Positions 9,416 to 62,938 of a stretch of 64,000 bases of DNA are shown here, one piece after another (position 1 is the stretch's first letter; every line of letters begins with the position of its first letter). This stretch comes from Blasia pusilla (Eukaryota). A model generated the notes under the pieces. That model was not told the DNA's origin, ran no database searches, and was given only the letters and a program-made list of their open reading frames with translations. Position numbers and translations under genes: made by a program. The stretch lies in NCBI GenBank assembly GCA_050084515.1, contig CM114271.1, forward strand, positions 28,644,001 to 28,708,000. Direction: 5' to 3'.

Positions 9416-10078
9416 GCAACCCGTCAGCATCGGACGGGTTGCACGCTTATGCTAAACATTGTCGAAGCGAGCAACCCGTCCCTCTCCGACGAGTTGCTCG
9501 GATACCGCTCCTTCTTGCCCAAAGATGCCGGAGGCGTGCAAACCGTCTGTTCCCGACGAGTTCCGCGGGTGCCTCGCCTTTTAGCCCAAAGACGGCGAGG
9601 CGTGCAACCCGTCGCCCTCCAACGGGTTGCGCAAGGGCCTCGCCTTGTGGTGCAGCCAGCCAGACTCCGACGACTTGCACGGGAAGCCCTCGTCCTTAAC
9701 CCTTGATGAGGGAAGCGTGCAACCCAAAGGTCTCCGACGGATTGCCCAAGATTCGTCCCGTTCCCATCCCAAACACGGCGGAGGCGCGCAACATGTCGGT
9801 CTCCAACGGGTTGCGCGGGTACCTCGCGTTCTTTTCCGAAGACGACAGAGGCGCTCAACCCGTCGAAGACCGACGGGTTGCTCGCGCACGTGGCGACGTA
9901 CCCAGGATGGTGGAGGCGCGCAACATGTCGGTCTCCGACGGGTTGCGCGGGTACCTCGCGTTCTTTTCCGAAGACGACGAAGGCGCACAACCCGTCGGTC
10001 TCCGACGGGTTGCTCGCGCACGTGGCGACGTACCCAGGATGGCGGAGCCGCGCAACCTGTCGGGCTCCGACGGGTTGC
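9416..10078. repeat. Array of about 10 copies of the palindrome GCAACCCGTCGGnnnCCGACGGGTTGC at roughly 65-bp period, between the two divergent genes
   Basis: Copies visible near 9416, 9471, 9538, 9604, 9719, 9788, 9856, 9920, 9987 and 10052; includes a roughly 131-bp two-unit tandem duplication. Confidence 0.92.
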
Positions 10079-11671: not shown

Positions 11672-12392
11672 GCAACTCGTCGGACTCCGACGAGTTGCTC
11701 GATTGATGAATGGGTTAGGTTTGTTTTTGCCGAAAGCAACTCGTCTGACTCCAACGGGTTGCTCGACTGCACGCTTTTTCGGATGTTTTTTTAAGATTGC
11801 AACTCGTCAGACTCCGACGAGTTGCTCGATTGATGAATGGGTTAGGTTTGTTTTTGCCGAAAGCAACTCGTCGGACTCCGACGGGTTGCTCGACTGCACG
11901 CTTTTTCGGATGTTTTTTTAAGATTGCAACTCGTCGGACTCCGACGACTTGTTTGATTGAACATAGATTTAACTAGTTTTTGGCCCAAAGCAAACCGTCG
12001 GAGTCCGACGGGTTGCTCGACACGCCGCCTTGTCAGGATGTTTTTTGAAGCTGTTTTTCCCCAAATCAACCCGTCGGAGTCCGACGGGTTGATTTCGCCC
12101 AAAAATAGTTTCGAGGCAAGCAACCCGTCGGACTTCGACGGGTTGCTTTGGGGAAAAAACCTTCTAAACCTGCAGTCACTCGAGCAACTCGTTGGAGTCC
12201 GACGAGTTGCATTCTTCAAAAAACATCCTCACAAGGCGGCCTATCGAGCAACCCGTTGGACTCCGACGGTTTGCTTACCAGGCATTAGCAAATCTAAATG
12301 CAATCCGTCGGACTCCAACGGGTTGCATCATTTAGCTCGTTGCTAGAATTCAACCTTGAGCTGTGACGACTCGTCGGAGTCCGACGGGTTGC
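11672..12392. repeat. Intronic array of about 12 palindrome copies (about 55-75 bp period)
   Basis: For example caacccgtcggagtccgacgggttg at about 12067 and gcaacccgtcggacttcgacgggttgc at about 12120. Lies inside intron 11651-12436 and includes a roughly 127-bp tandem duplication. Confidence 0.92.
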
Positions 12393-14538
12393 AAGAACCC
12401 ATGTAATTTCCTGACAGTTTGAGTTTGGATGTGCAGGATTGTATCGGAGGGGAAGGTCACCCACCACTGGATCCAGGACTGCGATCGGGTGAGGAAGGTG
12501 CTTACGACGTACGCGAGAGAGTACAGGGGGTTCTTGGGCGATGCCCTTGTCAATCAGATGCTTGCAAAGGGTGTTCAGATTAAGAAGAAAACTTGGGCAA
12601 ACAAGTTTATTTCTCAAGATGCAGCCGTAACCATCCTTTGCTGGTCGAAGATATAGGCCGTGAAGAAAAGCGTTGCACTGGAGCTGGAGCGGAGGGAGAA
12701 GGTATCTGCGTCTGAGCGCGCCAAATTCATCCAAGCTGCAGCACATGCTGCAACGAAATACACGGCGAGCAAGATGCAGCGATACATCAGCATTCTAAAC
12801 CCCGAACTTGGTCCGGAGTTCTACAAGGAGCTCAAGGCGATTATCAAGCGCCCGTGAAGAGGGATGAAGATCCGCATGGTCGGATTGGGAGAAAGTGTCA
12901 TTTGGATCGCGTGCATCGGTTTGCGTTGTCCGGGATAAGCGAGTTCAGGAGGATACGATCGATGAAAATCGATCTCGAGGGCTCAGAGGCCTAGAAGAGG
13001 GCGGCACACCATCCTCCGGTGTGTCCGATCCAGTGATCTCGCATTGGCTACGCCGAATGGTCGTTCCGGGACGCGCGTTGCGGGTAATCGGAAGTCCATC
13101 TTTGGACGATGCGCAAGCGAGCTCGAAGATTAGAGCCCATTCGCCGAAGCAAACCTTGAAAGTTCGGAGATCTCGAGGTTTGGTTCTACGACATCCGGAC
13201 AAGCCAACGAAAAACCAGGATTCAAGACCATGTTCAAGGTTTGCGTCCTCCCTCGGTGAGCTTGACGAAGAAGTAGAGGGGAACAAACGGGATCAAGCGA
13301 AGAAGAAGCGAGATCTACAGGAGCAGACGGCCGATTTTGTTTGACTAAAAGCTGCCCAACGGATGGTCTTCAGGTTCCTCATCCAGTGTAAGAACGCAGG
13401 TACGTGGGGAAAATTACCGGTAGCCTTGAAATTTTGGGCTTCGCCGCCGGATGCAAAGACATTCTCCATGTACGACGTGGAGATGGGGCAGCACATGTCC
13501 GATTGGGAGGTGGAGAATTGCCCCATTTGGCTCGACTTCAACGACCCTGAAGACATCACGGATAAGGACTTACGAGTGCTTCGTGATGCAGTGGCCTCAG
13601 GACAAGACGACATCCCCAATTTTGTCCTGCCTGAAGACTTCTTCGGAGGAGATGCAGTAGAGCAGGCCCACGAGACAGCTAAGTTGGCTTCCAAGGTCCG
13701 CACAGCCAAAGAAAAATCCACAGCGGGTCTCAAAGGCAAGGCGAGGGGAGGGAAAAATTCAGAGGCTGAGTCTTCCCAAAGAGAGGCTGAAGATTCAGGG
13801 CTAGAGGCGGAATCGTCCGGACGAGCGGGGAGAGAGGGTCGGACCAGGTCCTCGGCAAAAAAAACGCCACCAGAATTTGAGGTCATAGAAACCCCGACAA
13901 GCCGTCCCCAGGCTAGGGAGAAGTGGAAGCGAGAGGTGCCCGGGTTGTCCCAAGGAGTATACAGCCCATCATCCTTGGGAAGACACAGACAAACAACGAC
14001 CCGGACAAGCGTTCTCCTTCAGTTCACTCCTTTACTGGATGAGTGAAGGGCTTCAGTTCTCAAGCGTCGACACCAGCCATCAAAAAATTGACAACGCTGG
14101 AACGAAAGCTCCAACGAAACGGGCACGCTGCCTAGACGGTGAATGGAGTGGTCGAAGAGGTTGCGGTGGATCTCTTGATCACCGATCTGCCCTCGGGGTT
14201 GCGACTTTGGGGCGAGAATCCGTCGGACGAGGTACCTGAGTGGAATGTGCCACTCTCTTATGACCAGATTGCACTTTTGTTCTCCTTTGCAGACGCCTAT
14301 CTGAGTGACACGGGCTGGTTCTTGGTGTTGTCTGGAGGGAGCGAGGACGAGCTCTTCAACCTCCAGTGCGTCAAGAGGTCGCTAAAGTGGAGGACGACAC
14401 AATCGTGGATCATAACAAATGAGTACCCACTCCGATCCGCGACGAGTCAGATTCGGGTAAGGCTCAATTCCTGTTCTATAATTTCAATTATATTTTAATG
14501 ATGTGTATAATGAGAGTCAATCTGGGTTTTTTTCAGGA

Positions 14539-14837
14539 GCAACCCGTCGGAAGGCGGACGGGTTTCTTTAGAGAAGCCCATGCTCGGGTGAGAGCAACCC
14601 GTCGGTTTCGGCGGGTTGCATCTTTCCACATACAGGAAAACGCGGTGTACCTGCAACCCGTCGGAACCCGACGGGTTGCTGTTGCTTTTGGTTTTTCCCA
14701 GTTGATTTTGGTTTTTGGATGCAACCCGTTTGATAGCGACGGGTTGCTCTCACGCGAGCATGGGCTGCTCTAGGCCAGCAACCCGTCGCCTTCCGACGGG
14801 TTGCTCACGGAAAAAAACAACGGAGCCCGACGGGTTG
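14539..14837. repeat. Intronic array of 5-6 palindrome copies splitting the MTase-like domain
   Basis: Copies near 14539, 14594, 14653, 14721 and 14778, downstream of the GT donor at 14457. Confidence 0.9.
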
Positions 14838-16319
14838 ATCCAAAGTCTGTTATTGAAAATTTTCTCAAGGCGACTTCTTTAGTTTCTGACATTGTTTCCA
14901 ACGTCTTTGATTTGAGATGGACCGTCCCACGCTCATCGCTTCGGTTCGCCGAGCATAATTTCCAGGTGTTCAAGATCCAGGATCCTGTGGATCCATGCTC
15001 AGATGGGTATAGCTTAGATAGTTTGTACAATTCCCCCCCAAGAATTTACATGCAAGACAGTACCCCACTTCTGGGAGGAAGGGAAAAGTCGCCAGCCTTG
15101 ATGCAAACGCTCATCGAGCTCTGCTCAAGCCCGAGTGACTTGGTGTTCGACTTAGTGGGACATTCAGGGGCAAGTATCAAAGGCGCATGGCAGAGTGGCA
15201 AGAACATTCTCTGCTTCGAGTGAAGGCAGGAACTGTTTGACCTTTGCAAGGAGGCAAAGGCAGAATACGAAAGGCTTGTTGGGGCGTACAACTCTCCACC
15301 GGCCGAGCTCGGTTCAGAGCCACCCTTGGTAGTGACTCCATCGTCACTTCCAACGATTCCCAAAATCGGGAGGGCAAGGCCGAAAGTGATTTTGCAAGAG
15401 CTCTCCAACGATGATGAGTGAGTTCAAAGAACTCAACGACCCAGCTTGACTACAGCGTTTGGAGTAGGGAGTTTTTTTATAATGAGGCAAAAGATTTCAT
15501 AGAATAGATCAAATGTACAGTTCCAAGCTTTTTTCGGATGATATAAAGCAGAAGATTTTTTCGATCGATGGTGGTGCTTGTAAATGTTTGCTGATCATTT
15601 TTTGTCTTTTCGAATGTGATCGTCTCCACGGACTTCTATTTTGCAACCCGTCAAATTTCTCCTGCTTGCAACTTTCACTTTATGACCACTGCAACCCGTC
15701 GGATTTCTCCTCATTGCAACTTTTCGCTTTTTTACCACCTCCAGGCAACCTGTCTGATTCTGACAGGTTGCCTGATCGGACCCTTTCCCTGTTGGTCCAA
15801 CTTAAGAGGCAGTCTGGCGGGCTTCTTCCCTTGGCACCTTCCCCTCAACTTGTAGAGGCAGGCGTAGGCTTCTTTTCTTCTCTTAGACGTGTTGGATTCC
15901 TTCTACCTGTGCGGTTGCCATAATGGTATTACCGGGGATGGAGCAGATATTGATTGTCACATCTGAGTAGCCGATAGGCCGAGATCTATCGTGGATAGGG
16001 CGTAGGAGCCAACGGACTATCTTGAGTGTAACTTTGTCCCACAGTGTCGGATGAGGTTGAGGATAGGTCCATTGTGTCAGGACCGTCGTTTTTAACGACT
16101 TTGATGTTGAGGTCTTTTTGGTAGGGTGACTTGTTGACAGGTCACTGCCCTTGGTAACTGTCTTGCCTTGAGTTACCAAGGGAAGGGCTATTTTTAGGAG
16201 AAGAGCCTTTTGGCTCTTCCCAACCTATATAAGAGAGGCTTTATATGCCGATGTAGATTGAGGAGTGGAGTTTTAGGCCGGGTGTGCCGTTTTTACTACT
16301 CTTTATTTTTACATGAGAA

Positions 16320-19300
16320 AGATGTCAGGGGGCTAGTGGGAATTCGTTGTTTGCAGGTAGGCAAGCGAGTTGCCTCGGTTGGGGAGCCCCTGGAGACGTG
16401 TGTGTGACATTTTTGTGTCATTTTTCTGTTCGGAAGGCCGTGGGCGGAAGCGCTGTCCGTTTTTCTCAGATTTCGTTGGTGCGGATTGTTGGGGGACAGC
16501 AGCCGAGTGTAGCGTATGGTGGGCGTCAGGTGTACGCAAGTGGAGGCGTCGAGAGAGAAGGAACGGGCAGGTTTGGGTCTTGCAGCCTCCGGGGGGCTGT
16601 CAAGTAAAGGCGGCTAGAGTTAGGTCGAAGTTTAGGGTTCGGGGCGCGGACGGGCAGGGCGCGGACAGCAGGCTGGGCGGACGGCAGGGCGCGTGACATG
16701 TGCCCCCCACCCCACCATTTAGGGCCCAAGGGGCCCGCATAGGGCCGCGGTCCAAGTCTTCCCCCCCCTTTTTCCAACGTGGTAAGAGTGGATGCACTCA
16801 TAGCAAACGTGGTAGGACGGACGAGGTCGGTCCGTAACGCAAAGGCGCATGGCAACGTGAGGGCGAGGAGGATGTCGACGTCTTTGAGTGATCGACAAGT
16901 TGACAGCGGGCGTGACATGATGTTTTAGAGGTGCGCATAGGGCGTTGCGAGAGTTTACGCTGGAGAGGCAGTGTGCATGATGCCGACGGGTTGTCCGCAT
17001 CTGTTGACGGGAGGATCGACGTGTTGGTCGAGGGGAGTGTTATGTGGCGGAGATTGTCATATCATGTGGAGGAGTGCATATTGATGGTGCAAAGAGTTGA
17101 GGGCGTGATCAGGTTACCCATTCGAGTCCCTTTTCCCGCACTTTTTGTGTATCATTGAGAGTGTTGGGTATCGGGTAGTAGCTGGTGCTAGATGGGTGCA
17201 GTGATGGTGACGAGTGTAGATTCTTTTCATGTGTAGCATGTTGGTGGATATACGGCGGTTGCCGAGTAGGGGTCGCGTGTATGACCCGAGAGTGTGTCGC
17301 TAGGTTAGGTGAGTCAGTTGGGAGGCTCATGGTGAGCCCGAGTGTTGAGCGTGCGTGAGGCCGGGTATGTCATCACGGGATTGACGTTAGCATAGGTGAG
17401 CTAGTGAGGCGTGTGGGAGACTCTCGGTGAGTCTGAGTGCTTGAGCGGCCGAGAGCAGGGTTTGTCATCACGGCGTTCTTCCAGGGTTCGGAAGAACGGG
17501 GTAGTGCGAGCAGTGGTAGTGGTGTGACACGGAGTGGAGTGAGATACCGAGGGGTTACCAGTGAGGAGCCCCGCGACATCCATCCGTGATTGGATCGTCA
17601 TCACTGGACACTGGGTCTGGTGACGAGATCACCGATAGAGACAATAGTACTTGGCATGAGATGGACGACATGGGCCATCGGGGCATGCGTCGTTTCTCGG
17701 GTGCAGTGGGCACCATCGACTTAGATGATTTCATCCAGGAGTTCGACACATGGTGCGACTTCCAGGAGATACGGACCCCGACACGGTTCAACCCTTTCAT
17801 GGCATGGAAGGGGTTGTTCCAACACTTGGAGGGTCGTCCAATGGATGACTACATGGAGTTCCGATCACTATATTCAGTAGAGATCGATGCCTGGAGGATG
17901 TATTGGGCTCCAGGGTATGTGTCCACTAGTGGTCGCGAGGCATATGATGGGATTGTGAGAGAGAGAGACCCACACCATCGGCCCGGAGACTAGATGGAGA
18001 GGAGGGCAAAGTGACACAAGGCGATGTGGGAGAGACGGTGGTAGAGGGCCCACCGGCTTCAGCCCCACGGTGGAGTTCTTCCGGCGGTTGGGGAAGAGCT
18101 ACTGTAGGCGTACCCATTGACAAGTCAAGAGTCTATACGATTTTCAGCGACGATCGGGTGAGAGTGCGAGAGAGGCATTCACACGCATGAGGAGGCTGAT
18201 CATTGCTACGTTTGGAGGACCGAGGTGCGGTCCCGATTGGTCTGAGGTTATGGACCGAGAACTACGGAGGAGAGTCCGAGATGCGGTCTTTGATTCACAA
18301 CGAAGCCCACATTGAAGGTGGTCTTTGAGTTGTGAGCGTATTGAGCTCAACATGAGTGAGGAGTAGGTAGTGACCGCTGGATTTTCTCGAGAGTCGACGG
18401 GTCCACGAGCGGCGGTGACCCCACCGGTGCAGAGCGAGCACCGAGTACCACGGAGCGGGCGGGCAGTGTGCCTAGAGAGCGGGGCGGGTACCGTGAGCCT
18501 ATGAGGCAACGACCCGCACCTACATATGTTGCCCAGCCAGGACCGATGTGGTCTTGTTGGGCGTGTGGGGGGCCCATAGGCGAGAGGCGCCCACAACATG
18601 GGAGAGGACCACGGCGCCTCGATTGCGCAGACCCAGAGGATGGCTCCACGAGCACCGGTGTGACCATTGCCACAAATATGGTCACACTAGGGATACATGT
18701 TTTGACCTTTCGCGAGGGGCACGCGTCGAGAGGTAGGCCGAGGGCCTGGGGCGGTCGCCCTAGAGGAGGTCGGGAGTTCTTCTTGGGCGTGGTGGTAGAG
18801 GACCACCACCAGCCGGAGAGGAGATGGAGCAGAGCACAGAGCGGCGCTTCTCTCACGCATCGATCGGTTGGAGCGGAGAGGATTGCCGCCATGACGATGA
18901 TGCGGCTTAGGAAAAGGCACGGAGCTGCGGCGGCTAGTGTGACTCGTCTCTACCTCTTACCCCGACCGGGTGAGGATCTCTTCAATATGGGATTCATGTG
19001 TAGTGCGGCCCAGGTTGAGGCACTGCGATGGTGACTTCGGGGGTGCTGCGAGAGGCACCGAGCCATCGAGAGGTGGAGTTGAGATTGACCCACCGAGGGG
19101 ACCGATGGGCGGCGAGCCAGGGTTCCACGATCGTTCACATTGTCGGAGGCACTACACACACCATCGATGGTGCCTCGTTGACCAGCGCGCCTCTGATTCG
19201 AGGCACCTACGTCGGCGTCACGAGGAGTTGGAGTGACAACTCCTATGCGGCTCGAGTGGAGTCGATTGTCGACTATAGTGTTGGAGGTGGCCACTAGAGT

Positions 19301-22300
19301 GAGTCGACTCGCTATTTTCCGCCTTAGAGTTGGCGGCGTTGGGAGTTGGACCAAAAGCGAGGTGTTCCGGTTGGCCGCCACGTTGTGTGAGCGTGGAGAG
19401 ATGAGCGCTTCTTGCTCGAGGTAGTTGAGGAGGTGGTGGACTTTCCTCGAGCCGGTGCTGGGGCGTTCCCCACGAGTCATGGCATCTTGGCGGCGGGCGC
19501 GGTTGGTAGATATGCCACTCGACCGCCATAGAGCGAGCGATGGTGACACTTGGAGTAGTGTTCTTGGATAACCGAGGAGTATTTCGCTTTGTTAGTCCGA
19601 CGGGACAGTATACCACCGCGCAGCGCGCCCTACTTGATTCGGGAGCGCAACCCTTGATGTTAGGAAGCGGCGTGTTTAGCGTTGGGGTTACGGAAGGCCG
19701 ACATTGAGCCTTGTCCCTTCCAGATCTGAGACCTCGATTGGGCGTATCACCCACTCGATATATGACTCGACAGAGATTGTTGTGAGAGTCCAGCCGAGCA
19801 TGCGGCGGATAGTGCTATGGTGCGACGCGTGCGATTACGACACCGGTGGTAAATGCGATGTGTTGGTGGGGAGTGCGATGTTATATCCCCTAGATTCATC
19901 TTGACTTCTCGGGAGGAGACCGTTGCTTATCGGCCAGGATGGCGGTCGGTGACGGTCGGATGAGTCGATTACCCGTGTAGTTTGCGGGACGAGATGGTCG
20001 ATCACGAGGCGAGATGCGGTGACCACGTTGGTGGCTTTCACGAGTAGTAGTGTTGGCGGCCAGAGAGTTGTTGGAGGGGAACGCACATGCGGAGGATGTC
20101 CCGAAGAGCGGATAGTCCCACGGAGAGACAGGCCATGGCGGGTGTCTCTTCCCATGTTAGCGATGCCTCTTCACCATTATGGGGTACGACGCGAGAGCTA
20201 CAGAGGAGTGCCAACGACCTCGTGAGGCAGGCGTGGAGTCATGTTTTAATCCCAGAGCAGCGAGAGTCACGTGGCAATCGGGCTCTTGGAGTGGAGACGA
20301 TGACCCCACTAGATACCACACGTGTTGTGGGGGAGTGCCCAGAGGAGGGTGTTAGGGTGTTAGATCTCTTTGGAGGGATTAGCATCGGATTGGCTGCAGC
20401 ATTGCAAGCGGGCATACGGGTGCATCAGTACCTTTATGTGGAGAGAGATGAGACCGCGCGGCGAGTATCATTACGTCACCTGGCGAGATTGGTCCAGAGG
20501 TATTCTGAGTTGTTGTCGGTATCTGCAGTACGGGGATACCAGCATACGCTACCCGTCGACATATCTTTGGTGGGGGCGCACGATCTGGATAGAGTTGGCA
20601 CCATTCATTTGGTGATTGCTGGATGGCCATATCAGGGTCATTCATCAGCTGGCCGAGGATTTGGATTGCAGGATCCGAGGTCAGGGATGTTTTGGAAGAT
20701 GCTGCGAGTAGTACGACACTTGCAGCAGAGTCAGATATGTTCTCCAGCATATATTTTGGAGAACGTGCCGTTGTTGGGAGATACTCGTGCACGTGTGATG
20801 ACGAGTGTACATCAAGTGAGGTTCTGGTTGGGACCGGCTGTGTTGTTAGATGCAGCGAGAGTTGGGTCACGTGCCCATCATCCACGACTGTGGTGGACGA
20901 ACCTAATACCATCAGAGGTACTGAGTCGAGCCTAGAGTGGAGTCCAGAGAGCACCACATCTCACGGTGGATGCTATTTTGGACTCAGGGCGTTAATCTCA
21001 GGTGGTGACACACGATGATAGACCACCGTTGGCCACGGCCAATGGGGTGGGGGAGTTGAGGGCAGCCTTACCTACGTTGGTGAGCTTCCCAGCATCCCAT
21101 GCCTTTCGTCAGGGAGGGCCAGGCATGATTTGGGATGAGGTGACCAGAGTATTGGAGGAGCCTACAACAATGAGCGCGAGCGTGCCATGGGGTTCACAAC
21201 CAGTACTACGGCGGTGCCAGGGATGACTGAGGCATCACGGAGACAGGTGTTGGGGCAGGCGATGGACCTCAACTGTCTCACATGGATAGTCAGCCTAGGT
21301 ATGGGTGGCGAGAGGCGGACGGATGCGAGTGTCATCCATGCCGTCACGCCCACGAAGTTGGACCACCGCCCTACGTGGTGCAATACGAGGCATTGGTGGG
21401 GGCGAGACGAGGAGAGATAGGCACCCATGGACTTCCTGGGACGTCGTTCGAGCAGAGAGTGCGAAGGCGGCTAGAGTAGCACATGTTCATTTTTCGGATG
21501 TGGAGCATGGTGTAGGAGGTCAGAGTGGAGTGGCTGTTGCGGAGGTGGCTAGGGTTGCTACATAGCAACCAAAGCCGGAGATTGCGTCCTCTTCGGTGAG
21601 GTCACGATGGAGACTTGGGAGCCTGTGATACGTCTCAAGTTGATAGGAGGAGAGCGACGGCGAGTTCATAGGTTTCTGATAGGTAGAGGCTATTGCGCAG
21701 ATTCCACGCCCTATAGATGTGAGTCGAGTCCGAGCATTTCTTGGACTGGCGAACTTCTATCGACGGTATGTCAAGGGTTTTAGTGCGATCGCAAAGTCTT
21801 TGACCTTGTTGACAAGACTTGATCAGGTGTGGTTGTGGGGAGATGATCAGGAGCGAGCATTTCAGGAGCTCAAGGACATGTTGACGTCCTCACCCATTTT
21901 ACAGAGACCGATTAGGGGTCGTCCATTCCAGTTACATACGGATTGGAGCATGTTGGGTCTAGGAGCAGTGCTTACTGAGAGGGATGACGAGGAGAGGGAG
22001 TTCGTTGTGGCTTACGCGAGTCGATCGAACAACATTGCAGAGGCTAAGTACAGGTCCTACGCAGGAGAGTGCTTGGCTGCAGTGTGGGCCGTGGCACATT
22101 TTAGGTGCTATTTATTTGGCAACCCTTTCACACTTATCACTGATCATCAGCCGTTGAAGTGGTTGATGGAGTCCGACAAGCTTACGGGAAAGATTTCCAG
22201 GTAGGCTCTATTACTACAGGAGTATGAGTTTGAGGTGGTTCATAGGCCAGGTCGGCTGAACCAGGATGCGGATGGGTTGAGTCGTAACCCATGTCCGAGT

Positions 22301-23960
22301 TAGAGAGACGTCACGGGAGCTCGATGGCACGGAGAGAGTGATGAGGAGATGGTGCCCGGTTGGCATGCATCTGCCTATCTTTGTTGGTTGACTATGGCAG
22401 GTCAGCCACAGGTGATGACTCCAGTGGTGGGATTGGATGATGAGTCCTTGGATGCGGAGGTTAGTGAGGAGGCGACAAGTGGTCGTGATATCCATGACGA
22501 CGTGGAGGTTGTGGACTTCTTGCGCACAGGCGTCATTGCGAGTACAGTGAGTGCTAGGGAGCGGGATCGGATCCTACAGAGAACCAAGAGGTTCAGGTGG
22601 GAGGGGACTCACATTTTGCGGGTATGGGGAGATGGTAGGATACGAGTGGTACCTCATCCTTCCCAGCGAGCACGTGTAGTGCGACATGCCCATGAGGAGT
22701 TGGAACATTTTGGAGTAAAGCGTACTTACAGCTTACTCCAGGTTCAGTATTGGTGGTGCGGCATGCATACTGGGGTACAACAGTTTGTGGCCTAAAGTAT
22801 GGTATGTGACAGAGTGCGAGCATCCTTCAATGCTCCCACTCCGCAGTTACATCCTTTGCCAATTATGGGTTTAGGTTATCAGTGGAGTTTAGACTTTGCG
22901 GGACCTTTGCCATTGACAGGGCGTCATCATAGGTACGTGTTAGTCATGGTGGAGCATTTCTCCAAGTGGATAGAGTTGGTGGCACTACCAGACAAGGCGA
23001 GCGAGGGAACAGCTTATGCGTTTCTAGATTGTGTGCTTAGTCACTTTGGTGCACCGGCGGAGGTGTTGCCCGACGGTACCGAGTTTGGGGGAGAGCTTCA
23101 GGCCTTGTGTGATCAGGCGCTGATAGATCACCGCACCACGTCCAGGAATCATCCTGAGGCGGATGGATTGGCAGAGAGAGTGGTACAGACGGTGAAGAGA
23201 GGATTGCGCAAGTATGGCTTGCAACGGGGACAGTTGAGGGAGTGGGACCTACAGTTGGCATGGTTGGCTATGGGTTATTGCTTTAGTCGGCAAGCATCCT
23301 TGGCGTCATTTTCACCGTACTTTTTGCTCTTCGGGAGAGAGCTAGATTTACCTGCAGCGATTCGACGTGACATGGCGGAGGTGTTAGATCTTGATGATCT
23401 AGATGTGTGGGTGCAAGCATGTTCTCAGAGGGCGAAGTTTTTCGTAGAGTTATGCCTATGGCCTTTGAGAACTTAGCTATTGCCCAGCATAGAGATACAT
23501 TGAGGTACGCGACCATTAGTGGAGGAGGTTATCGTCCAGGGATTAGGAGGTTTCATCCTGGAGATTACGTGTATTTACAGCAGGCGGCACCCACGACGTT
23601 AGATGTCACTACAGGGGGCACGATCCTACGTGTGCGTGAGGTATTACCGACCGGAGTCCTCATGTTGGAGGGACGAGATGGTATGGTTTGGAAGGATCAT
23701 GTGCGCAATTGTGCGCCATGTCATCTTCCGAACGTAGATGGGACGGTGGATCCGAGCTTGGCTGTGGTACCTGCAGGCTTGAGGTGTATGTTGTGCGGAT
23801 CTGCGAGGGATGCAACCACCATGTTGGTATGTGATCATGTATATGTATGAGTTTATTTTTGTACATGTTTGGATCGACCCGTGTGTGGGGAAGATCGGTG
23901 TTGTGTGGTGTAGATGTGACGAGCAATGTATGTTGTGTAGCGATATGTATGCGCACGACA
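16320..23960 (+). mobile_element. Ty3/gypsy LTR retrotransposon G1: gag - protease - C5 DNA methyltransferase - (RT deleted) - RNase H - integrase - partial PHD - LTR 3' end
   Basis: gag from about 17620 (DLDDFIQEFDTWCD), CCHC knuckle CDHCHKYGHTRDTC at about 18660, protease ALLDSGAQPLMLG at 19627-19665, RNase H LHTDWSMLGLGAVL, integrase WSLDFAGPLP...DGLAER; ends in atgcgcacgaca at 23960 like the other LTRs. The left boundary is approximate. Confidence 0.9.
20345..21300 (+). pseudogene. C5-cytosine DNA methyltransferase domain embedded in gypsy pol (copy G1)
   Basis: Motif I VRVLDLFGGI, II LYVERD, IV IAGWPYQGHS (canonical PCQ), VI YILENV, VIII AHHPRLWWTN, IX-X ERAMGF...RRQVLGQAMD; in-frame stop at 20933. 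Confidence 0.9.
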
Positions 23961-25220
23961 TGATACTGGATGGGTGTCACATTGCGGAGCGTACAAGGTA
24001 TACTGCCGAGGAAGGCGGTGGGACTCGAGACAGGTTACATGGGACCGTTATGGTGTACCTAGTGGGGGCCAAGGCTCTCGAATTCGCCAACATTTTCGAT
24101 CCCCGTCTACAATCGGCCAAAGGAGCCACTTGAATCCCAGGACATTCCTTTGGTACCGTCACCGAGGAGAGTTAGGAGTAAATTTGTAGATGACGAGGCT
24201 GAAGAAATCATAGACTAGGTGAAATGTATATTTCCGAGGTTCCTTCGGAGGTAATAAAGGACGAGATTTTTTCAACCCATAATGGTGTTTGTAAAAGTTT
24301 GCTGGAATATGTTTTTGGACTTGTGGATTGTGTTCTTTTAGCTACTCAAAATTACAATTTCGCAACCCGTATGATTCGACTTTTGCTTTTTGCTTTGCTA
24401 CTTTTAACCATTTCCACGCAACTGCCGGATTCGGCAGGTTGACTCGCTTGAGTGATCGGACTCTATCGGTGAGACCAACTTCTGGCGCATTGTGGCGGGC
24501 TTCTTGACTTTTGGCTCGTTCCCCTTCATTCGTCCAACCAGTTGTAGGCTTCTTTTCTTGTCTAAGATGTGCAGGATTCCTACTACATGTCGGATAGCCA
24601 TTTCGGATTCCCAACCCGTTAGATCGTCGTGGGTGCAGGGTGGAAGAAAATCACTTCTAAAAATCTTTCCTTTCTTATGGTGAGCTTTCTTACGGGTTGG
24701 GAGGGGTGCAGCTTCTCGGTTTCTCAACCTAAGGATCTGATTTGTTCACATTTGAGAAAGTTTGTCTTGAGCAGACACCATTCATAACCGACAGAAAGTA
24801 GGTTATAGGGCAATTTAGGGGAGGCCATGATGCAGGCAACAATCCCTGCAAAAAGAGAGGTACCCATCCAGGTGGTCCTCCAACAAAAATACCAAGGGCA
24901 CTGCTTTTTGTTGACCGAGACAGGGAATGTTAAGAAACTTAGGCTCACATGGAGAGTGATGGAAAAATGTTTAGGGTGGTCTTATGATGTCTCCTTTTTT
25001 CTCGCCCCCAGGAAAGAGGAGGTTTTTTAGGGCCAAATGTGGACCAGTAAATACTCTCTTCTTAAGATTTCCTGAATTTCAAAGCAAACAAAAATTTCAA
25101 ATATGTCAAAAAGTTTTGAAGAGAGGAGGCGGATTTGGCCTTTTTTTTTTTAAGAGAGACTCTCCTCTCTTCCTCTCTTCCTCTCCTCTCTTACTCTCTC
25201 TTGTCAGAATACCAGCCCCC
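23961..25220 (+). mobile_element. DNA transposon copy C: terminal about 1.26 kb of the palindrome-bearing element
   Basis: Aligns by eye with 47300-48939 (with an internal difference) and ends in a CT-rich tract plus GAATACCAGCCCCC. Confidence 0.85.
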
Positions 25221-28200
25221 ATCCTCAGCTTGGGAGTGGCTGAGTAGCGTCGTATGAGATCGCGACAGATCACAGCGGTTGCGTTGGTGAGCCCCATGCC
25301 TACCGAGACGGTGGAGGCAGTGGCGGGGGGCGAGACCCGAGGAGATCTACGCACCAGGGGAGATCGGAAGAGACACCCTTGGACTTCTTAGGATGTTTTG
25401 AAGGTACGCAAGGAGATGATAGCCACAGCATCGAGCGTGGTTTTGGGCACTGCACGTGGAGGAGAGTTTGCAGTTGGCTATAGGAGAGCGGCCGAGTGTT
25501 GTTGTTCGAGAGGGTTGCACCATAGCAACCACCGATACCCGCGCCGGAGAGTCCTACCGTAGTCACGATGGAGACTTGGGAGCCAGATATGGGCCCTAAG
25601 TTGACAGGAGGAGAGCGGCGCCGAAAACATCAGTTCCTCAGGAGTTATAGGAGTTGCTTTGCGTTTAGCATGGAGGATTTGGGTACGTTGTAGGGACCGG
25701 GGATCCGCATTGAGTTGTCGAGTGATATGCCGATCTTTGAGCGACCCCTACAGTCTGATGATTTGGAGAGGGCTCTGATTCAGAGTAGGAGCCAGGACTT
25801 GGTCAAAGGAGGACTAGTGGAGATGTCGCATGGGGAGTATGCATCTGCCACTGTCATGCCCGCCAAGAAGGATGTGCATGGCAACTGGATGGATAGGCGG
25901 ATGTGTGGGGATTACCGACCTATCAATCGGCAGACGAAGTCCGATAGGTATGCCATGCCCACCCCTAAGGAGATCTTTGATGCGATTGGTCACGCAAAGG
26001 TCTTCAGTTCATTGGATTTGCGAGCCGAAGACCATCAACTGCCTATCAGATTGGAGGACAGGCAGAAGACGGCATTTTGGGGCATCGATCCTCACGGGAA
26101 GGATTGTTTGTACCAGTGGCGGTTCTTACCATTTGGTTTAAAGAATGCCCCGGCTGAGTTTCAGAGGGTCATGGATAGGATCTTGGCTGGTCTGGATTTT
26201 GCTAGGTGTTATATTGATGACATCGTAGTCTTTAGCGCCACGGTTGAGGAGCATGAGCAACATCTAGAGGAGGTGTTTCGACGATTGCAATTACAAGGGC
26301 TGAAGCTACATCCAGACAAGTGCAAGTTCTTCTACGACCAGATTGAGTACTTGGGTCATACGATATACCCAGGGGGCCTTGGTGTTCAGCAGATGAAGGT
26401 AGAGGCTATCTCACGCATTCCACGCCCTACAGATGGTGGCTTACGCTAGCCGCTCGAACAACGTTGTAGAGGCGAAGTACAGCTCGTATGAGGGTGAGTG
26501 CTTGGCTGCGGTGTGGGCTGTCGCGCATTTCAGGTGTTACTTATTCGGCAACCCCTTTACCATCATCACTGATCATCAACCACTGAAGTGGTTGATGGAG
26601 TCCGACAAGCTTACAGGGAAGCTTGCGAGATGGGCTCTGTTGTTGCAGGAGTATGATTTTTAGGTGGTACATAGACCTGGGATGCTCAACCAGAATGCAG
26701 ATGGGTTGAGTCGTAACCCATGCCCAAGTTAGCGAGATGCGGCTGGAGCTCGATGGCATGGAGAGAGTGATGCGGAGTTGGTGCCAGGATGGCACGCGTC
26801 AGCCTATTTAGGCATGTTGGCTATGGAGAGCCAGAGTGTGGAGACTTCGATGGCGAGGTCTAGTGGAGAGTCCTTGGATCCCGAGGCCAGTGAGGACACG
26901 ACAAGTGGCCCAGATATTCATGATGATGGAGTAGTCTTAGAGTACCTTCATCTTGGCGACCTTGCGAGCACCATGGATGCTAGAGAGCGGATCGGATCCT
27001 ACAAATGGGCGAGCGGTTCCGTTGGGAGGGGACACATGTTTTGAGGGTTTGGGAGGATGGCAGAGTACGCGTAGTGCCGTATCCTTCGCAGAGAGCACGA
27101 CTAGTGCAGCATGCCCACGAGGAGTTGGGTCACTTTGGGGTGAAGCGGACGTATAGCTTGCTCCAAATTCAATATTGGTGGCGAGGCATGCAGACTGACG
27201 TTCATCACTTTGTTGCCAGGTGCATGGTGTGTGATCGGGTCCGAGCATCGTTCAATGCTCCGACTCCACAGTTGCATCCATTACCGATCATGGGCTTAGG
27301 GTATAGATGGAGTTTGGATTTTGCACGACCTTTGCCCTTGACAGAGCGTCACAGTCGTTATGTGTTGGTGATGGTCGAGCACTTCTCGAAGTGGATCGAG
27401 TTGGTTGCATTGCCTGACAAAGCGAGTGAGGGAGTAGCTGATGCCTTCCTTGACAGAGTGTTGAGTCATTATGGCGCACCGGATGAGGTGTTGACAGACC
27501 AGGGTACCGAGTTTTGCGGTGAGTTCCACGCCTTGTGTGATTAGGCATTGATCAACCACCGCACGACTTCGCGAGATCATCCTAAGGCGGATGGATTAGG
27601 GGAGAGAGTTGTGCAGAAGGTGAAGAGGGGTTTACGCAAGTATGGCTTGCAGAGAGGTCACCTAGGAGATTGGGACCTCCAGTTGCCATGGTTGGCGATG
27701 GGATATAGATTCAGCAGGCAGGCATCCTTAGCGTCTTGTTCACCGTACTTGCTACTTTATGGCGAGAGCCGATTTACCTGCGGCCATTCGTCGAGATCTT
27801 TGGTGAGGTGTCTTTGAACCTTGATGACCGGATGTATGGGTGCGAGCATGTTCTCAGTGAGTTATTTCGAGAGTGATGCCCATGGCGTTCGAGAACTTGG
27901 CGATTGCACAACATCGGGATACGTTGAGGTATCGACTATTCGAGGTGGTGGTTATCGACCAACTATCCGGAGGTTTCATCAGGAGATTATGTCTACTTGC
28001 GTGACGGCAACGGCGGCGTTGGATGTGCTGCAGGCGCACTATCCACGAGTGCGTGACATTTTGCCAACGGGTGTTCTCTTCTTTGGAGGGACGCGCGATG
28101 GTATGGTATGGAAGGACCATGTGCGTAATTGTGCGCCATATCACCTTCCTAACATTGATGGTACGGTAGATCCGAGTTTAGCGATAGTTCAAAGGCTTGC

Positions 28201-29292
28201 GTTGTATGTTGTGTGGTTCGCCCGTAGTGCGCCACGATGCTAGTCTGTGATGGGTGTTCGAGAGGATGGCATATGGCATGTTTGGCGCCACCTCTCACTA
28301 GGGTTCCTCAGGGGCGATGGATGTGTCCCAGATGTACATAGAGAAGGTAGTTCTACATTCTGACTTGTGTCTGTGACATGGATGACAAGGAGGCGACTAA
28401 CGATGGGGCCACATGAGCACCCGGCCTTCTTGCTCTTAGCGTCCGAGAGATGTATGTCATGGTAGGTAGGGATAGATGGCTATCTGGAGTTAGAGGGACC
28501 TAACCACCAACTAGGGGGGCGATTGGAGATATTTTGGTACTTCTTGTCTCGTTGTTTGGATGCCATGAGTTAGCATGGGATCATGCGTGTTTGTGTGTGT
28601 GTGTTCGGTGACAGCGATGTATGTTGTGTAGCGATGTGTATGCGCACGACAACTGTCACGTCTTTTAGGATAGATCGGTGAGATCTAATAGAGCGCCTTC
28701 ATAAGTATTGGAGGACATGCCCAGTAGGTCGAGGGTGACCTGTTGAGGCCCTTGGAAACCTGAGATAGCAGGTTTCCCCTTCGCTTCGGCTCATTTGGAG
28801 CCATATTGAGGAACTTACTATTTTAGGTAAGTACCATTTTGAGTATATGGTCGACTTACTATTTTTGGTAAGTGGCCCTTGACCTCCTACATCAGGTCAA
28901 GAGCCAAGGAGGTGACTTGGGAGAATGGGTTACCATGGAGAGAGCTTGGGAGAGGGGAGGGGTATACCTCAAGGAGAGAGAGCTTGAGAGCTCATTCTCT
29001 CTTTGTTGAACCTCTTGGCATGAGGCGGCAGAGCTATGGTACCTTGCCTTATGAGTGTAACCCAAGCCTCTCATTAGGAGAGTGGGTTTGGTTTGACATG
29101 AGAGAGAGTGCACACCTTTTAGAACTATGGTGTGAGATGGTGGAGAGAGAGATTGGATCTTACTTTATTGGAGATATTTTGGTACTTCTTGTCTCGTTGT
29201 TTGGATGCCATGAGTTAGCATGGGATCATGCATGTTTGTGTGTGTCCGGTGACAATGATGTATGTTGTGTAGGGATGTGTATGCGCACGACA
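25221..29292 (+). mobile_element. Ty3/gypsy G2: starts just after the MTase; RT, partial RNase H, integrase, PHD, PPT, 3' LTR
   Basis: RT 25715-26430 (RMCGDYRPIN, LPFGLKNAP, CYIDDIVVFS); integrase 27100-27800; PHD about 28190-28340; PPT AGGGGGGC at 28513-28520. Confidence 0.92.
28654..29292 (+). repeat. LTR (about 640 bp, TGTC...GACA)
   Basis: Begins TGTCACG and ends GCACGACA; homologous to 30930-31571. Confidence 0.85.
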
Positions 29293-58060: not shown

Positions 58061-58067
58061 ATCTCTA

Positions 58068-61000
58068 TAGACCAAGATGGCACTTAGGTGATGGGCGCCT
58101 TAGCTCATTACCCATTCAGTTCAGAGGTGCAATGATCGAGCGATGGCCACGAGAGGTGGCGACCTTAGCAGCATTTAGCAGTGCCATCACTTGGCCTAGT
58201 GATTGGATTGAGGGATATGTCCATGCAAAGGATACTCCCGTTCGTGACATTTCTATGGAGAGGAGTGTTATGGTAGCCGCATCATTCTGTGGAGGAGAGG
58301 TGTCGTTGTGGGGCTTGACTGAGGAGCTTCGACGATTGGCATATGAGCACGTGCAGACCGCCTGGAGCGAGGCGTTTGCACCGGAGCGTGACGGGTCTAA
58401 GGAACCCGAGGTAGTAGGGAGTGCTACAAAGACACCCTTGGATACCACACCTATTGTGTCGTGTATCCCAGAAGAGGATATTTGAGTGTTAGATCTCTTT
58501 GGAGGGATTAGCATCGGGTTAGCTGTTGTTTTGCAGGCATGAGTGCGAGTGCAGCAATACCTGTACGTGGAGAGTGATGATGTTGCGAGGCGTGTCTCAC
58601 TATGACATGTGGCGTAGTTATGTCTACGTTTTCCAGACTTATTTTCTGCGTCCGCAGTACAGGGGTACGGAAGTTCCCTACCGAGGGATATTTCGTTGTT
58701 GGGGGCGCAGGACTTAGAGTGGGTAGGGACCACTCATTTGGTCATTTCCTGTAGGCCATGTCTGGGCCAATCGAGTGTTGGACGAGGCAGCAGGTTGGCT
58801 GACACTCGGTCCACGTTGTTTTGGGAGATGTTGAGGGTCTTACGACAGTTGCAGGAGCACCAGTCTTGTTCTCTAGCCTACATTTCGGAGAATGGGCCGA
58901 TCTTAGGAGACTCCAGGTCACAAGTGGTGACAAGTGATCAGAAGGTGCATGCCTTGATTGGCTCAGTAGTGTTCTTGGATGCGGCGAGAGTAGGTTCTAG
59001 AGCCCATCGCCTGCGTCTATGATGGATCAACTTGGTGCCCCATGCGATGTTATGGAGGGCGTATGCGAGAGTGGAGCACCCCTCCCATTTGTTAGTGGAT
59101 TCCGTTCTAGATCCAGGTCGACAATCACAGGCAGTGAGGTACCATGATCGACCACTGTTGACTGTGGTCAACAAGGTAGGCAAGCCGCGGGCAGCCTTGC
59201 CCACGTTTGTGAGTTTTCTCACTTCCTATGCATACAAGGAGGCCGGTCTTGGCTTCGTTTGGGATGACCAGGTTCAACGGTTGGTGGAACCCAACGCCGA
59301 CAAGATCTAGAGAGAGCGAGCGATGGGATTTCCCACAGGAGTGACGGTAGTACCGTCAGTGTCAAAGGCATCACGACGCCATGTCTTGGGTCACGCAATG
59401 GACCTGAACTGCTTCCTCAGCTTGGGAGTGGCTGAGGAGCACCGTATGAGATCGCGACAGATCACAGCGGTTGCATTGGTGAGCCCCATGCCTACCAAGA
59501 CAGTGGAGGCAGTGGCTGGGGGCGAGACCCGAGTAGATCTACACACAAGAGGAGATCGGGAAGACACTCTTGGACTTCTTGGGATATTTTGCAGGTATGC
59601 CAGGAGATGATAGCCACACCATCGAGCGTGGTTCCGGGCACTGCACGTGGAGGAGATCAGAAGGATAGTGTCCGAGTGTTGTTGTTTGAGACGGGGTTGC
59701 ACCATAGCAACCACTGATACCCACGTTGGAGAGTCCTACCGTAGTCACGATGGAGACTTGGGAGCCAGATATGGGCCCTAAATTGACAAGAGGAGAGCGG
59801 CGCCGGATACATCAGTTCCTTAGGAGTTATAGGAGCTGCTTTACTTTTAGCATGGAGAATTTGGGTACGCTGAAGCGACTGGGGATCCGCGTTGAGTTGT
59901 CGAGTGATACACTGATCTGCCGACAATCCTACACATACAGTGTTATGGAGAGGGCTCTGATTCAGAGTGGGAGCTAGGACTTGGTCTGAGGAGGACTAAT
60001 GGAGATGTCGCATGGGGAGTATGCATCTGCCACTGTCATGCCCGCCAAGAAGGATATGCATGGCAACTGGACAAATAGGCGGATGTGTGGGGATTACCGA
60101 CCTATCAATCGGCAGACAAAGTCCGATAGGTATGCCATGCCCACTCGTGAGGAGATCTTTGATGCAATTGGTCACGCAAAGGTCTTCAATTCATTGGATT
60201 TGTGAGCCGGCTACCATCAGCTGCCTATTAGATTGGAGAACCGGCAGAAGACGGCATTTTGGGGCATCGATCCTCACGGGAAGGATTGTTTGTACCAATG
60301 GTGGTTCATACCATTTGGATTAAAGAACGCCCCGGCTGAGTATTAGAGGGTCATGGATAGGATCTTGGCTGGTCTAGATTTTGCTAGGTGTTATATTGAT
60401 GACATCGTAGTCTTTAGCGCCACGATTGAGGAGCATGAGCGACATCTAAGCAGGTGTTTCGACGATTGCAATTACATGGGCTGAAGCTACATCCAGGCAA
60501 GTGCAAGTTCTTCTATGACCAGATTGAGTACTTGGGTCATACGATATACCCGAGGGGCCTTGGTATTCAACAGACAAAGGTCGAGGCTATCTCACGCATT
60601 CCACGCCCTACAGATGTGAGCCGTGTTGGCGCATTCATGGGATTGGCAAACTTCTATCGGCGATACGTCAAGGGATTCAGTTCGATTGCGAAGCCGTTGA
60701 CCTTGCTGACCAAGGTGGATCACGAGTGGCACTGGGGGGATGAGAAGGAGGGAGCATTTCACTTGCTCAAGGACAGGTTGACGTCCACACCCATCTTGAG
60801 GAGACCGATCAGGGGGCGTCCTTTCTAGTTGCACACAGATTGGAGCATGTTGGGGCTTGGAGCGGTGCTCACCCAACATGATGATGAGGCTAGAGAGTTT
60901 GTGGTGGCTTACGCTAGCCGCTCGAACAATGCTGCAAAGGCAAAGTACAGCTTGTATGAGGGTGAGTGCTTGGCTGCAGTGTGGGCTATTGCGCATTCAA

Positions 61001-62437
61001 GTGTTACTTATTCGGCAACCCCTTTACCATCATCATTGATCATCAACCACAGAAGTGGTTGATGGAGTCCAACAAGCTTACAAGGAAGCTTACGAGATGG
61101 GCTCTGTTGTTGCACGAGTATGATTTTCAGGTGGTACATAGACCTGAGATGCTCAACCAAGATGCAAATGGGTTGAGTCGTAACCCATGCTTGAGTCAAT
61201 GAGATGTGACTGGAGCTCAATGGCATGGAGAGAGTGATGAGGAGTCAGTGCCAGGATGGCACGCGTCAGCCTATTTAGTCATGTTGGCTATGGAGAGCCA
61301 CAGTGTGGAGACTTCGATGGCGAGGTCTAGTGGAGAGTCCTTGGATCCCGAGGCAAGTGAGAGACAAAAAGTGGCCAAGATATTCATGATGATGGAGTAG
61401 TCTTAGAGTACCTTCGTATTTCCAACGTTGTGAGCACCGTGGGTGCTAGAGAGGGGGATTAGATCCTACAGCAGGCCAGACGGTTCCATTGGGAGGGGAC
61501 ACATGTTTTGAGGGTTTGGAAGGATGGTAGAGTACGCGTAGTGCTGCATCCTTTGCATAGAGCACGACTAGTGCAGCATGCCCACGAGGATTTGGGTCAC
61601 TTTGGTGTGAAGCGGACGTATAGTTTGCTCCAGATTCAGTATTGGTGACGCGGCATGCAGACTGACGTTCAGCAGTTTGTTGCTAGGTGCATGGTGTGTG
61701 ATCAGGTCTAAGAAATGTTCAATGCAACGACTCCACAGTTGCATCCATTACCAATCATGGGCTTAGGATATAGATGGAGTTTGGATTTTGTAGGACCTTT
61801 GCCTTTGACGGAGCGTCACAGTCGTTATGTGTTGGTGATGGTCGAGCACTTCTCGAAGTGGATCGAGTTGGTTGCATTTCCTAACAAAGCAAGTAAGGGA
61901 GTAGCTTATGCCTTCCTTGACAGAGTACTGAGTCATTATGGTGCACCGGATGAGGTGTTGACAGACCAGGGTACCGAGTTTCGCGGTGAGTTCGAGACCT
62001 TGTGTGATCAGGCGCTGATCGACCACCGCACAACTTCGCGAGATCATCCCGAGGTGGATGGATTAGCAGAGAGAGTTGTGCAGAAGGTGAAGAGGGGTTT
62101 ACGCAAGTATGGCTTGTAGAGAGGTCACCTGGGAGATTGGGACCTCCAGTTGCCATGGTTGGCGATGGGATACAGATTCTGCAGGCAGGCATCCTTAGCG
62201 TCTTTTTCATCGTACTTGCTACTTTATGTTCGAGAGCCAGATTTACCTGCGGCCATTCGTCAAGATGCTAGTGAGGTGTTGGACCTTGATGACCCTGATG
62301 TATGGATGCAAGCATGTTCTCAGAATGCTGAGTTATTTCGGAGAGTGATGCCCATGGCGTTCGAGAACTTGGCGATTGCGCAACATCGGGATACGTTGAG
62401 GTATGCGACTATTCGGGGTGGTGGTTATTGACCAACT
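58068..62437 (+). mobile_element. Ty3/gypsy G5: C5 methyltransferase (about 58480-59420), RT, RNase H, integrase; many stops
   Basis: VLDLFGGISIGL, ISCRPCLGQS, YISENG, LDAARVGSRAHRLRL, ERAMGF...VLGHAMD; RT CYIDDIVVFS at about 60390; integrase 61715-62119. Confidence 0.92.
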
Positions 62438-62619
62438 AAAGATTTCATGAATTTGAAATGTGGTCCACTTGCTACTCTCTTCTAAAGATTTCATGAATTT
62501 GAAAGCAAACAAAAATTTCAAATATGTCAAAAAGTTTTGAAGAGAGGAGGCGGATTTTGCCCTTTTTTTTGAAGAGAGACTCTCCTCTCTTCCTCTCTCC
62601 TGCCAGAATACCAGCCCCC
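62438..62619 (+). mobile_element. Isolated terminal fragment (about 180 bp) of the palindrome-bearing DNA transposon
   Basis: Matches 48755-48939 and 25045-25220; ends GAATACCAGCCCCC. Confidence 0.85.
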
Positions 62620-62931: not shown

Positions 62932-62938
62932 TCTGCCC

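Follow-up and report, generated by a model that had tools for sequence, protein, structure and literature searches.

The genome of Blasia pusilla carries a family of Ty3/Gypsy retrotransposons that encode a DNMT3-type C5 cytosine methyltransferase (MTase) between the protease and the reverse transcriptase (RT). The family probably belongs to an old streptophyte lineage, the same as that of KnitGypsy-Dnmt3 of the alga Klebsormidium nitens, with no new capture of the enzyme. Its coding region is divided by one conserved in-frame UAG into ORF1 (Gag-protease-DNMT3) and ORF2 (RT-RNase H-integrase-PHD finger), and its repeats are split. The explanation favoured here, which combines this lineage with readthrough of the stop, an integration route through joined cDNA ends and methylation of the element's own cDNA, is read from sequence comparisons and, taken as a whole, has a better than even prospect of being right.

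The window is a stretch of 64,000 nucleotides (contig CM114271.1, positions 28,644,001 to 28,708,000 of the forward strand) and includes the copies G1, G2 and G5 (Table 1). A host gene in the window encodes a protein nearest to liverwort proteins (67-71% identity to those of Marchantia, Riccia and Calypogeia; 55% to a moss protein), in agreement with the land-plant host assumed in the first-pass annotation of this DNA.

Table 1 Features of the retrotransposon copies in the window (positions are those of the window).
Feature	Position	Strand	Remarks
G1, whole copy (interior, between target-site duplications)	15955-23960	+	Ty3/Gypsy element, dead
G1 left target-site duplication	15951..15954	+	TGAT
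G1 repeat A1	15955..16310	+	5' end TGTCAC; TATA box
G1 primer-binding site, self-priming type	16311..16324	+	putative
G1 gag-like region	17661..19550	+	CCHC-like knuckles; stops and frameshifts
G1 aspartic protease	19555..19902	+	DSG at 19636-19644; frameshifted
G1 DNMT3-type C5 cytosine methyltransferase	20339..21320	+	motifs I-X in linear order
G1 conserved in-frame stop, TAG CAA CCA	21563..21571	+	type I readthrough context; ORF1 end
G1 RT N-terminal stub	21601..21682	+	
G1 RT connection and RNase H	21683..22290	+	PF17919, PF17917
G1 integrase	22655..23476	+	H2C2 zinc domain PF17921, rve DDE core PF00665
G1 integrase C-terminal part and first half of PHD finger	23470..23835	+	complete PHD in the relative L082
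G1 repeat B	23830..23960	+	end: GCACGACA
G1 right target-site duplication	23961..23964	+	TGAT
G2	25222..28335	+	5'-truncated copy of the G5 subfamily; starts in post-MTase linker
G2 stop, TAG CAA CCA	25523	+	
G5	58066..62438	+	second subfamily; truncated, broken by stops
G5 MTase	58486-59424	+	catalytic PC kept
G5 stop, TAG CAA CCA	59705	+	then RT, RNase H, integrase

The main C5-MTase motifs recognised in G1 by the first-pass annotation are present, namely motifs I (LDLFGG, 20360), IV (GWPY, 20624), VI (ENV, 20759), VIII (20870-20887), IX and X (GQAMD, 21253), and the domain matches PF00145 above the cut-off (E 8.7e-7). The annotation had also correctly read the catalytic PC as PY in G1 and PC in G5. 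G1 is a dead copy: the catalytic Cys is replaced by Tyr (codon TAT, 20630) and the first Arg of motif VIII by His (20879), the MTase contains stops at 20933 and 20993 and a frameshift near 21169, and ~750 bp of the RT core are deleted at 21681-21683, which brings the RT N-terminus directly up to the region of RNase H. Repeat A1 has an internal deletion of ~118 bp in which the self-primer segment is gone, and the rest of the PHD finger, the 3' non-coding region and the purine tract are all deleted up to repeat B. The gag-like N-terminus shares 68% identity with Marchantia Mp4g09160; for the protease, the Pfam Asp_protease_2 match on the relative L082 is below the cut-off.

The MTase had been placed directly after the DSG protease and before RT and RNase H in both G1 and G5, as a family trait. 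In G1, RNase H does follow the MTase, but the RT core is missing and the DSG lies ~720 nt before motif I and not directly next to the MTase. In G5 the MTase is followed by RT; the copy is truncated at ~58066 and retains the tail of the protease region without a DSG, so it shows the MTase-RT order and not the protease-MTase order. As a trait of the family the placement holds, with the protease upstream of the MTase in 29 of 30 own-genome loci and the RT core downstream in 28 (all except G1 and L013). These 30 loci are the copies nearest to G1 and not a random sample; in the own-genome search the best 150 of 12,546 candidates were scored, all 85-100% identical. A separate nested insertion of the MTase was considered against the own-genome loci, the metagenome loci and the collected relatives, and rejected. 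The search for intact copies that had been proposed gave a mixed outcome: intact ORFs were found in none of ten Blasia copies examined over 20 kb, but the relative L082 has long ORFs of 1369 aa and 1047 aa, parted by TAG CAG TTA alone. ORF2 of L082 encodes RT, RNase H, integrase and a PHD finger. The order protease-RT-RNase H-integrase, which defines Ty3/Gypsy elements, is present; no chromodomain match was found in ORF2 of L082 or L093, and no recombinase match in either ORF of L082.

In profile comparisons, the solved structures nearest to the MTase are DNMT3A, B and C (E 1.6e-24 to DNMT3A); for DRM-type entries the E values are 2.8e-13 to 2.9e-9, and M.HhaI has 6.8e-9. The fold was compared using a model based on an alignment of 61 sequences (pLDDT 96; single-sequence model, pLDDT 33). 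This model matches DNMT3B with Z 30.3 and an rmsd of 2.5 Å over 273 aligned positions (M.HhaI, Z 24.9), and Foldseek matches it to DNMT3 along its length (E 2.9e-19). The permuted motif order of DRM-type enzymes is absent, motifs I-X being linear, and the domain is unrearranged and intronless. Judged by these profiles and the predicted fold, the element's methyltransferase is genuine and of the DNMT3 type. Across the 61 diverse sequences the catalytic Glu is invariant, the Cys is present in ≥90% and both Arg residues are conserved; PC is also the family state, with Cys in 28 of the 30 own-genome loci and Glu likewise in 28. The dN/dS of the MTase is 0.08-0.22 in nine between-family pairs, for which dS is near saturation (one further pair is saturated), and points to purifying selection between families; among copies within one family it is 0.43-0.80, with decay dominating. 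Over the MTase, G1 and G5 share 65.6% DNA identity (dS ~1.5), which together with the between-family ratios bears out the view that they have clearly diverged and that the lineage has long persisted.

Relatives at 56-75% identity were found in Marchantia polymorpha, which has many close ones, Calypogeia fissa and Sphagnum; those in Closterium are 40% identical. With E limited to 1e-30, a profile search yielded 592 clusters. Two placements of the MTase occur among the collected proteins, PR-MTase-RT and RNase H-MTase-integrase-PHD, the latter including proteins of Scenedesmus and Cymbomonas. Phylogenies of the MTase and of RT, as the first-pass annotation had advised, were constructed. In the MTase tree (FastTree with a midpoint root; 166 domains after removal of partial ones and of three duplicates; rows without host DNMT3) a single clade (SH 0.999) corresponds to the PR-MTase-RT placement and contains the Blasia family, liverwort and peat-moss-type elements, Closterium and K. 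nitens GAQ93235.1 (P0141), a Gag-CCHC-protease-DNMT protein that we infer to be KnitGypsy-Dnmt3. The PR-MTase-RT elements are also grouped in the RT tree (0.965; FastTree, midpoint root, 64 rows, none from Klebsormidium). The grouping of the MTase with that of K. nitens and the shared split-repeat layout indicate that the Blasia element is probably of the KnitGypsy-Dnmt3 lineage.

The first-pass annotation had offered either a related lineage or an independent capture, and only the former fits. An independent capture from a land-plant host is very unlikely. Bryophytes keep true DNMT3 genes (PMC6453930), and host DNMT3 rows are absent from the MTase tree, but the placement is the same and falls in one clade with transposable element (TE) proteins of Closterium and K. 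nitens, TE-borne algal relatives have MTases 35-45% identical, and the unusual repeats are shared. A host DNMT3 outgroup was sought via DUF3444, which gave one locus, a DnaJ-type gene without an MTase within 20 kb.

Although the MTase is in the same frame as RT, as had been predicted, and the copies are broken, the single polyprotein proposed for the element is not supported in that form, since an in-frame TAG lies between the two in G1, G2 and G5. In these copies the MTase frame ends at TAG CAA CCA, ~99 codons past motif X. TAG is found at the end of ORF1 in 27 of the 30 own-genome loci (the others being one CAG, one ambiguous and one truncated), and genome-wide the exact 27-mers at the stop number 531 with TAG versus 13 with A, C or G as the first letter, giving a family of at least 531 copies. 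Deamination of a shared CAG as the origin of the stop was rejected, with 4 CAG versus 531 TAG and the same stop in distant families. Both anchors were present in 57 of 80 fetched metagenome loci; 53 of the 57, which are redundant, mostly of one peat-moss-type family and not 57 independent events, have TAR-CAR at the junction (41 TAG, 12 TAA), and 41 have the same frame on both sides of the stop. The sequence TAG-CAR-YYA is exact in five of six families, down to 48% MTase identity and with differing flanking peptides; the sixth, peat-moss-type family has CAA CCC in place of CAR YYA, and TAA in 12 of 53. Exact CAR YYA follows the stop in L054, L081/L082 and L093. Proteins of Marchantia and Calypogeia stop 96-98 aa after motif X, the matching place, and GAQ93235.1 and three relatives end just past motif X.

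The SIRE1 retroelement uses a type I readthrough context. UAG CAR YYA is such a type I signal (bioRxiv 10.1101/2024.02.08.579442), and the exact context recurs here in five families, where it lies between MTase and RT. ORF2 would therefore, as judged by the codon context, very probably be made through leaky readthrough of the UAG, which as part of the same step would have the DNMT made at the level of Gag, more abundantly than RT and integrase, and taken up into the particle. In the Closterium-type relatives P0042, P0050 and P0034 the MTase runs through with no stop, and Gag-level dosage is thus not universal.

Expression of ORF2 by splicing or from a start of its own appears unlikely. An ATG lies 14 codons past the stop in the Blasia family and three codons past it in the peat-moss-type family, but the first 19 codons past the stop contain no Met in L082 or L093. 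Gene models of Marchantia and Sphagnum (P0013, P0018, P0028 and P0033) join MTase to RT, but the four do so at four different places. Neither process would account for a frame kept across the stop in 41 of the 57 loci, nor for a stop context that is conserved where the peptide varies. Two RNA runs, weak evidence and possibly from a related species, showed no joint near the stop at a bin depth of 9-13. Both had reads in 30 of 30 bins, strongly one-stranded (sense if the library is of the usual type), and as few as 5 of 1184 and 22 of 1267 reads were 99% alike to the element. One pile of 5 read ends, too thin to be relied on, falls in the TATA region, ~25 nt before the start that is predicted.

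The inserted copies do not have two like LTRs at both ends. Among 11 elements, eight have the layout A1-internal-B1-A2-B2 and three, G1 included, A-internal-B; the ends are TG...CA, and the 4-bp target-site duplication is exact in nine, matches at three of four positions in one and has no call in one. A1 and A2 are 91.5-99.2% identical within elements, but an ordinary LTR pair A1/A2 was rejected because the target duplications flank A1 and B2. The split-repeat layout recurs in the relatives L098, L115 and L128. A stretch of 14 nt that follows A1 can pair with a segment starting 31 nt past the TATA box of A; the complement is exact in five of eight cases, has a mismatch in one and is decayed in two. 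Complements with sequences different from those of the Blasia family are found in L098 (17 nt) and L082 (16 nt), and lengths of 14-17 nt in the three families were reached in 0 of 200 shuffles each; the match is decayed, absent or marginal in E5, E6, G1, L115, L128 and L067. A G-run (purine tract) precedes B1 in all families. With a primer site after A1 and a purine tract before B1, the LTR that is replicated would be B+A.

The second repeats are bounded by these priming sites, A2 ending at the border of the primer site and B2 starting at that of the purine tract. The exact A|B junction occurs 363 times, and primer-site letters are kept in 3 of 14 unselected A|B junctions. Thirty junction loci comprised 19 3' ends, four solo A-B with exact duplication and seven that were solo or rearranged and ambiguous; none had the form A-B-A-internal-B, and A followed by the primer site and preceded by B was found in 0 of 15. 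Eight metagenome loci have a B|A junction of the form AC(G/A)ACA-NN-T(G/A)TCA, and seven of them a G-run 108-117 nt upstream of it.

These positions suggest an integration route that is likely overall. The element RNA would act as its own primer, in the manner of Tf1, at the site that follows A1, and plus-strand synthesis would begin at the purine tract before B1, yielding a linear cDNA B-A-internal-B-A. The ends of such a cDNA differ from the integrated ends, for which end joining and internal opening is the simplest account: the cDNA ends would be joined, forming the A2|B2 junction, and the DDE integrase would open the internal B|A site at CA-NN-TG with loss of the two spacer bases, so that the insertion product is A-internal-B-A-B. 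The A-internal-B form could come from one-LTR circles or from later B-B recombination. Self-primed cDNA of Tf1 has ragged ends, and an internal attachment site would free integration from these. It is fairly likely that a streptophyte-wide Gypsy lineage has abandoned integration via cDNA ends and instead joins them and opens an internal site. If the two B|A sites of a circle were equal, however, insertions of the form A-B-A-internal-B would be expected as well, and the route by itself does not account for their absence.

Ngaro and PAT are split-direct-repeat tyrosine-recombinase retrotransposons, and a template of their type is rather unlikely here. The RNA would run from A1 into B2, the B1|A2 junction would template both termini, and the integrase would trim two spacer bases off a linear cDNA. 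The A-B-A-B layout is the same, and was called DIRS-like for KnitGypsy-Dnmt3; the 2-nt spacer is compatible with ordinary 3' processing, and the absence of A-B-A-internal-B is directly explained. Such a template, however, leaves unaccounted for the A2 stop at the primer-site border, the B2 start at the purine-tract border and the primer-site letters or inserts in some A|B junctions, and priming after A1 with a jump to A2 would leave B2 uncopied. An addition to the end-joining route would also explain the missing form: the Gag-level DNMT3 might methylate the conserved CG of ACGACA on the first double-stranded B|A copy, and the integrase would then cut only the other copy. This addition is quite doubtful; if true, the captured enzyme would have a restriction-modification-like job in transposition.

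For the enzyme itself, by analogy with a proposal that the DNMT of SymbioDIRS methylates cDNA in the particle (PMC5890265), there is about an even chance that DNMT3 in the particle modifies the element's new cDNA before insertion, methylating cytosines that are probably in CG. The domain may instead be kept for another job, acting on RNA or on host chromatin or serving as a binding component of the particle, a tentative reading that has a smaller chance. In yeast, the K. nitens domain produced no DNA methylation, a result that its authors judged inconclusive (PMC5890265), dosage at the level of Gag suits a structural role, and the CpG observed/expected ratios (0.79-0.89 in the Blasia family, 0.28-0.70 in relatives) are inconsistent and thus give no uniform footprint of self-methylation. 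Against another job stand the catalytic Cys, Glu and both Arg conserved in the 61 diverse sequences, and a modelled fold that as a whole matches DNMT3 enzymes acting on DNA. The PHD finger on the integrase may read chromatin at the target.

A DNMT3-bearing Gypsy element was already known from K. nitens; neither the conserved, probably leaky stop nor the explanation of the split repeats by priming turned up in print. No printed report was found of a DNMT-bearing retrotransposon in a land plant, of split repeats combined with an integrase, or of readthrough, a retrotransposon and CARYYA together, though figures, supplements (PMC5890265, PMC12344493) and Repbase may have bryophyte copies. The consulted portions of PMC12344493, PMC10952607, PMC9033089 and PMC6453930 make no statement on land-plant DNMT-bearing retrotransposons. 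De Mendoza et al. (PMC5890265) left open the function of the DNMT and the reason for DIRS-like repeats in a Gypsy element. The Blasia family gives testable answers in a tractable group, as Marchantia polymorpha has many close relatives of it. The stop leads to the prediction that the enzyme is present in the particle in many copies and is not a minor Pol domain; a second prediction, from the positions of the primer site, the purine tract and the junctions, is integration via end-joined cDNA. Such cDNA is usually seen as a dead end for DDE retroelements. The end-joined, internal-site route, if true, would explain the odd repeat layout of the algal relative. For annotation, many annotated bryophyte 'DNA methyltransferase' genes are ORF1s of transposable elements, and programs that look for LTRs will set the ends of such split-repeat elements in the wrong place.

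The nearest known system is KnitGypsy-Dnmt3, which has Gypsy domains and DIRS-like repeats (de Mendoza et al. 2018, PMC5890265), and whose DNMT shares one ORF with RT and RNase H according to PMC5890265 and its review file; the consulted text of PMC5890265 gives no mechanism for the repeats. The Blasia element resembles it in the unrearranged DNMT3 in a Gypsy element, the DIRS-like repeats (the K. nitens layout being that of a figure legend only) and purifying selection. It differs in its land-plant host and in having hundreds of copies versus few in K. nitens, and, unlike the published ORF, a conserved stop parts the DNMT from RT, GAQ93235.1 likewise ending past motif X. A preprint describes EpiLTRs, LTR elements with a DNMT sister to DNMT4, as distinct from streptophyte Gypsy-DNMT3 (bioRxiv 10.64898/2026.05.21.726589); the consulted text has no mention of Marchantia, bryophytes, mosses or land plants. 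As in Tf1/Sushi elements and the plant element Tcn1 (PMC6317226, PMC4600332), the primer site is complementary to the predicted 5' end of the transcript and not to a tRNA; unlike these, the Blasia element has a PHD finger with no chromodomain match, split repeats rather than two terminal LTRs, and a DNMT3. The layout A1-ORFs-B1-A2-B2 is shared with Ngaro, PAT and SymbioDIRS-Dnmt3, the last of which also bears a DNMT3, one that methylated CG in yeast (PMC5890265). In contrast to DIRS and Ngaro, the present elements have an rve DDE integrase and 4-bp target duplications, and L082 gave no recombinase match. Foamy-virus integrase cleaves 2-LTR circle junctions (PMC1180852), and the opening of joined ends by a DDE integrase proposed here is similar; whereas the virus cuts at the LTR-LTR junction, the predicted cut site here lies within the LTR at a distance of 138 bp, and the inserted copy would retain the joined ends.

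Solo A-B elements, made up of the repeats A and B of the Gypsy-DNMT3 family, were found with exact 4-bp duplications at eight genomic loci (L132, L145, L150, L151, L178, L179, L186 and L187). These are either A-A recombinants or the product of a separate integration. The truncation points of the retrotransposon copies G2, G4 and G5 are adjoined by the end of a CT-rich repeat, and the window contains an inverted pair of 1 kb with 96-97% identity. The CT-rich repeat and inverted pair may represent a younger element that inserts into retrotransposons of the G2/G4/G5 type.

Tandem and palindromic repeats are also present, as is a segment with a second copy that is 74% alike; those of its ORFs that were searched against Pfam gave no match. 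The proteins closest to the LCAT-like host gene are from liverworts. A host DNMT3-DUF3444 gene, sought in the genome via DUF3444 matches, was not found, the sole match (L192-L194) being a DnaJ-type ORF of 935 aa.

Features of the window
Feature	Position	Strand
Tandem and palindromic repeats, ~66 and ~127 bp	9460-10100, 11670-12330, 14526-14818	
Segment and second copy	12419-14460, 44026-46075	
LCAT-like host gene	38163-39101	minus
CT-rich repeat end	24918-25220, 48634-48939, 62939-63231	
Inverted pair	47865-48940, 62938-64000	

Several of the Marchantia gene models P0007-P0028 are ORF1 (Gag-protease-DNMT3) of the Gypsy-DNMT3 family, annotated as DNA methyltransferase or hypothetical protein. 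A related DNMT3-like domain lies between RNase H and integrase in a large clade, most members of which carry a PHD; the clade includes P0096, P0166, P0035, P0038 and many more, among them Scenedesmus and Cymbomonas proteins. In many proteins of this clade, EC replaces the catalytic PC of motif IV. In the C-termini of P0035 and P0038, the PHD is followed by a region that has DPW-G and PP motifs and may resemble the adenine-methylase-like domain found in DIRS and DAM-LTR elements.
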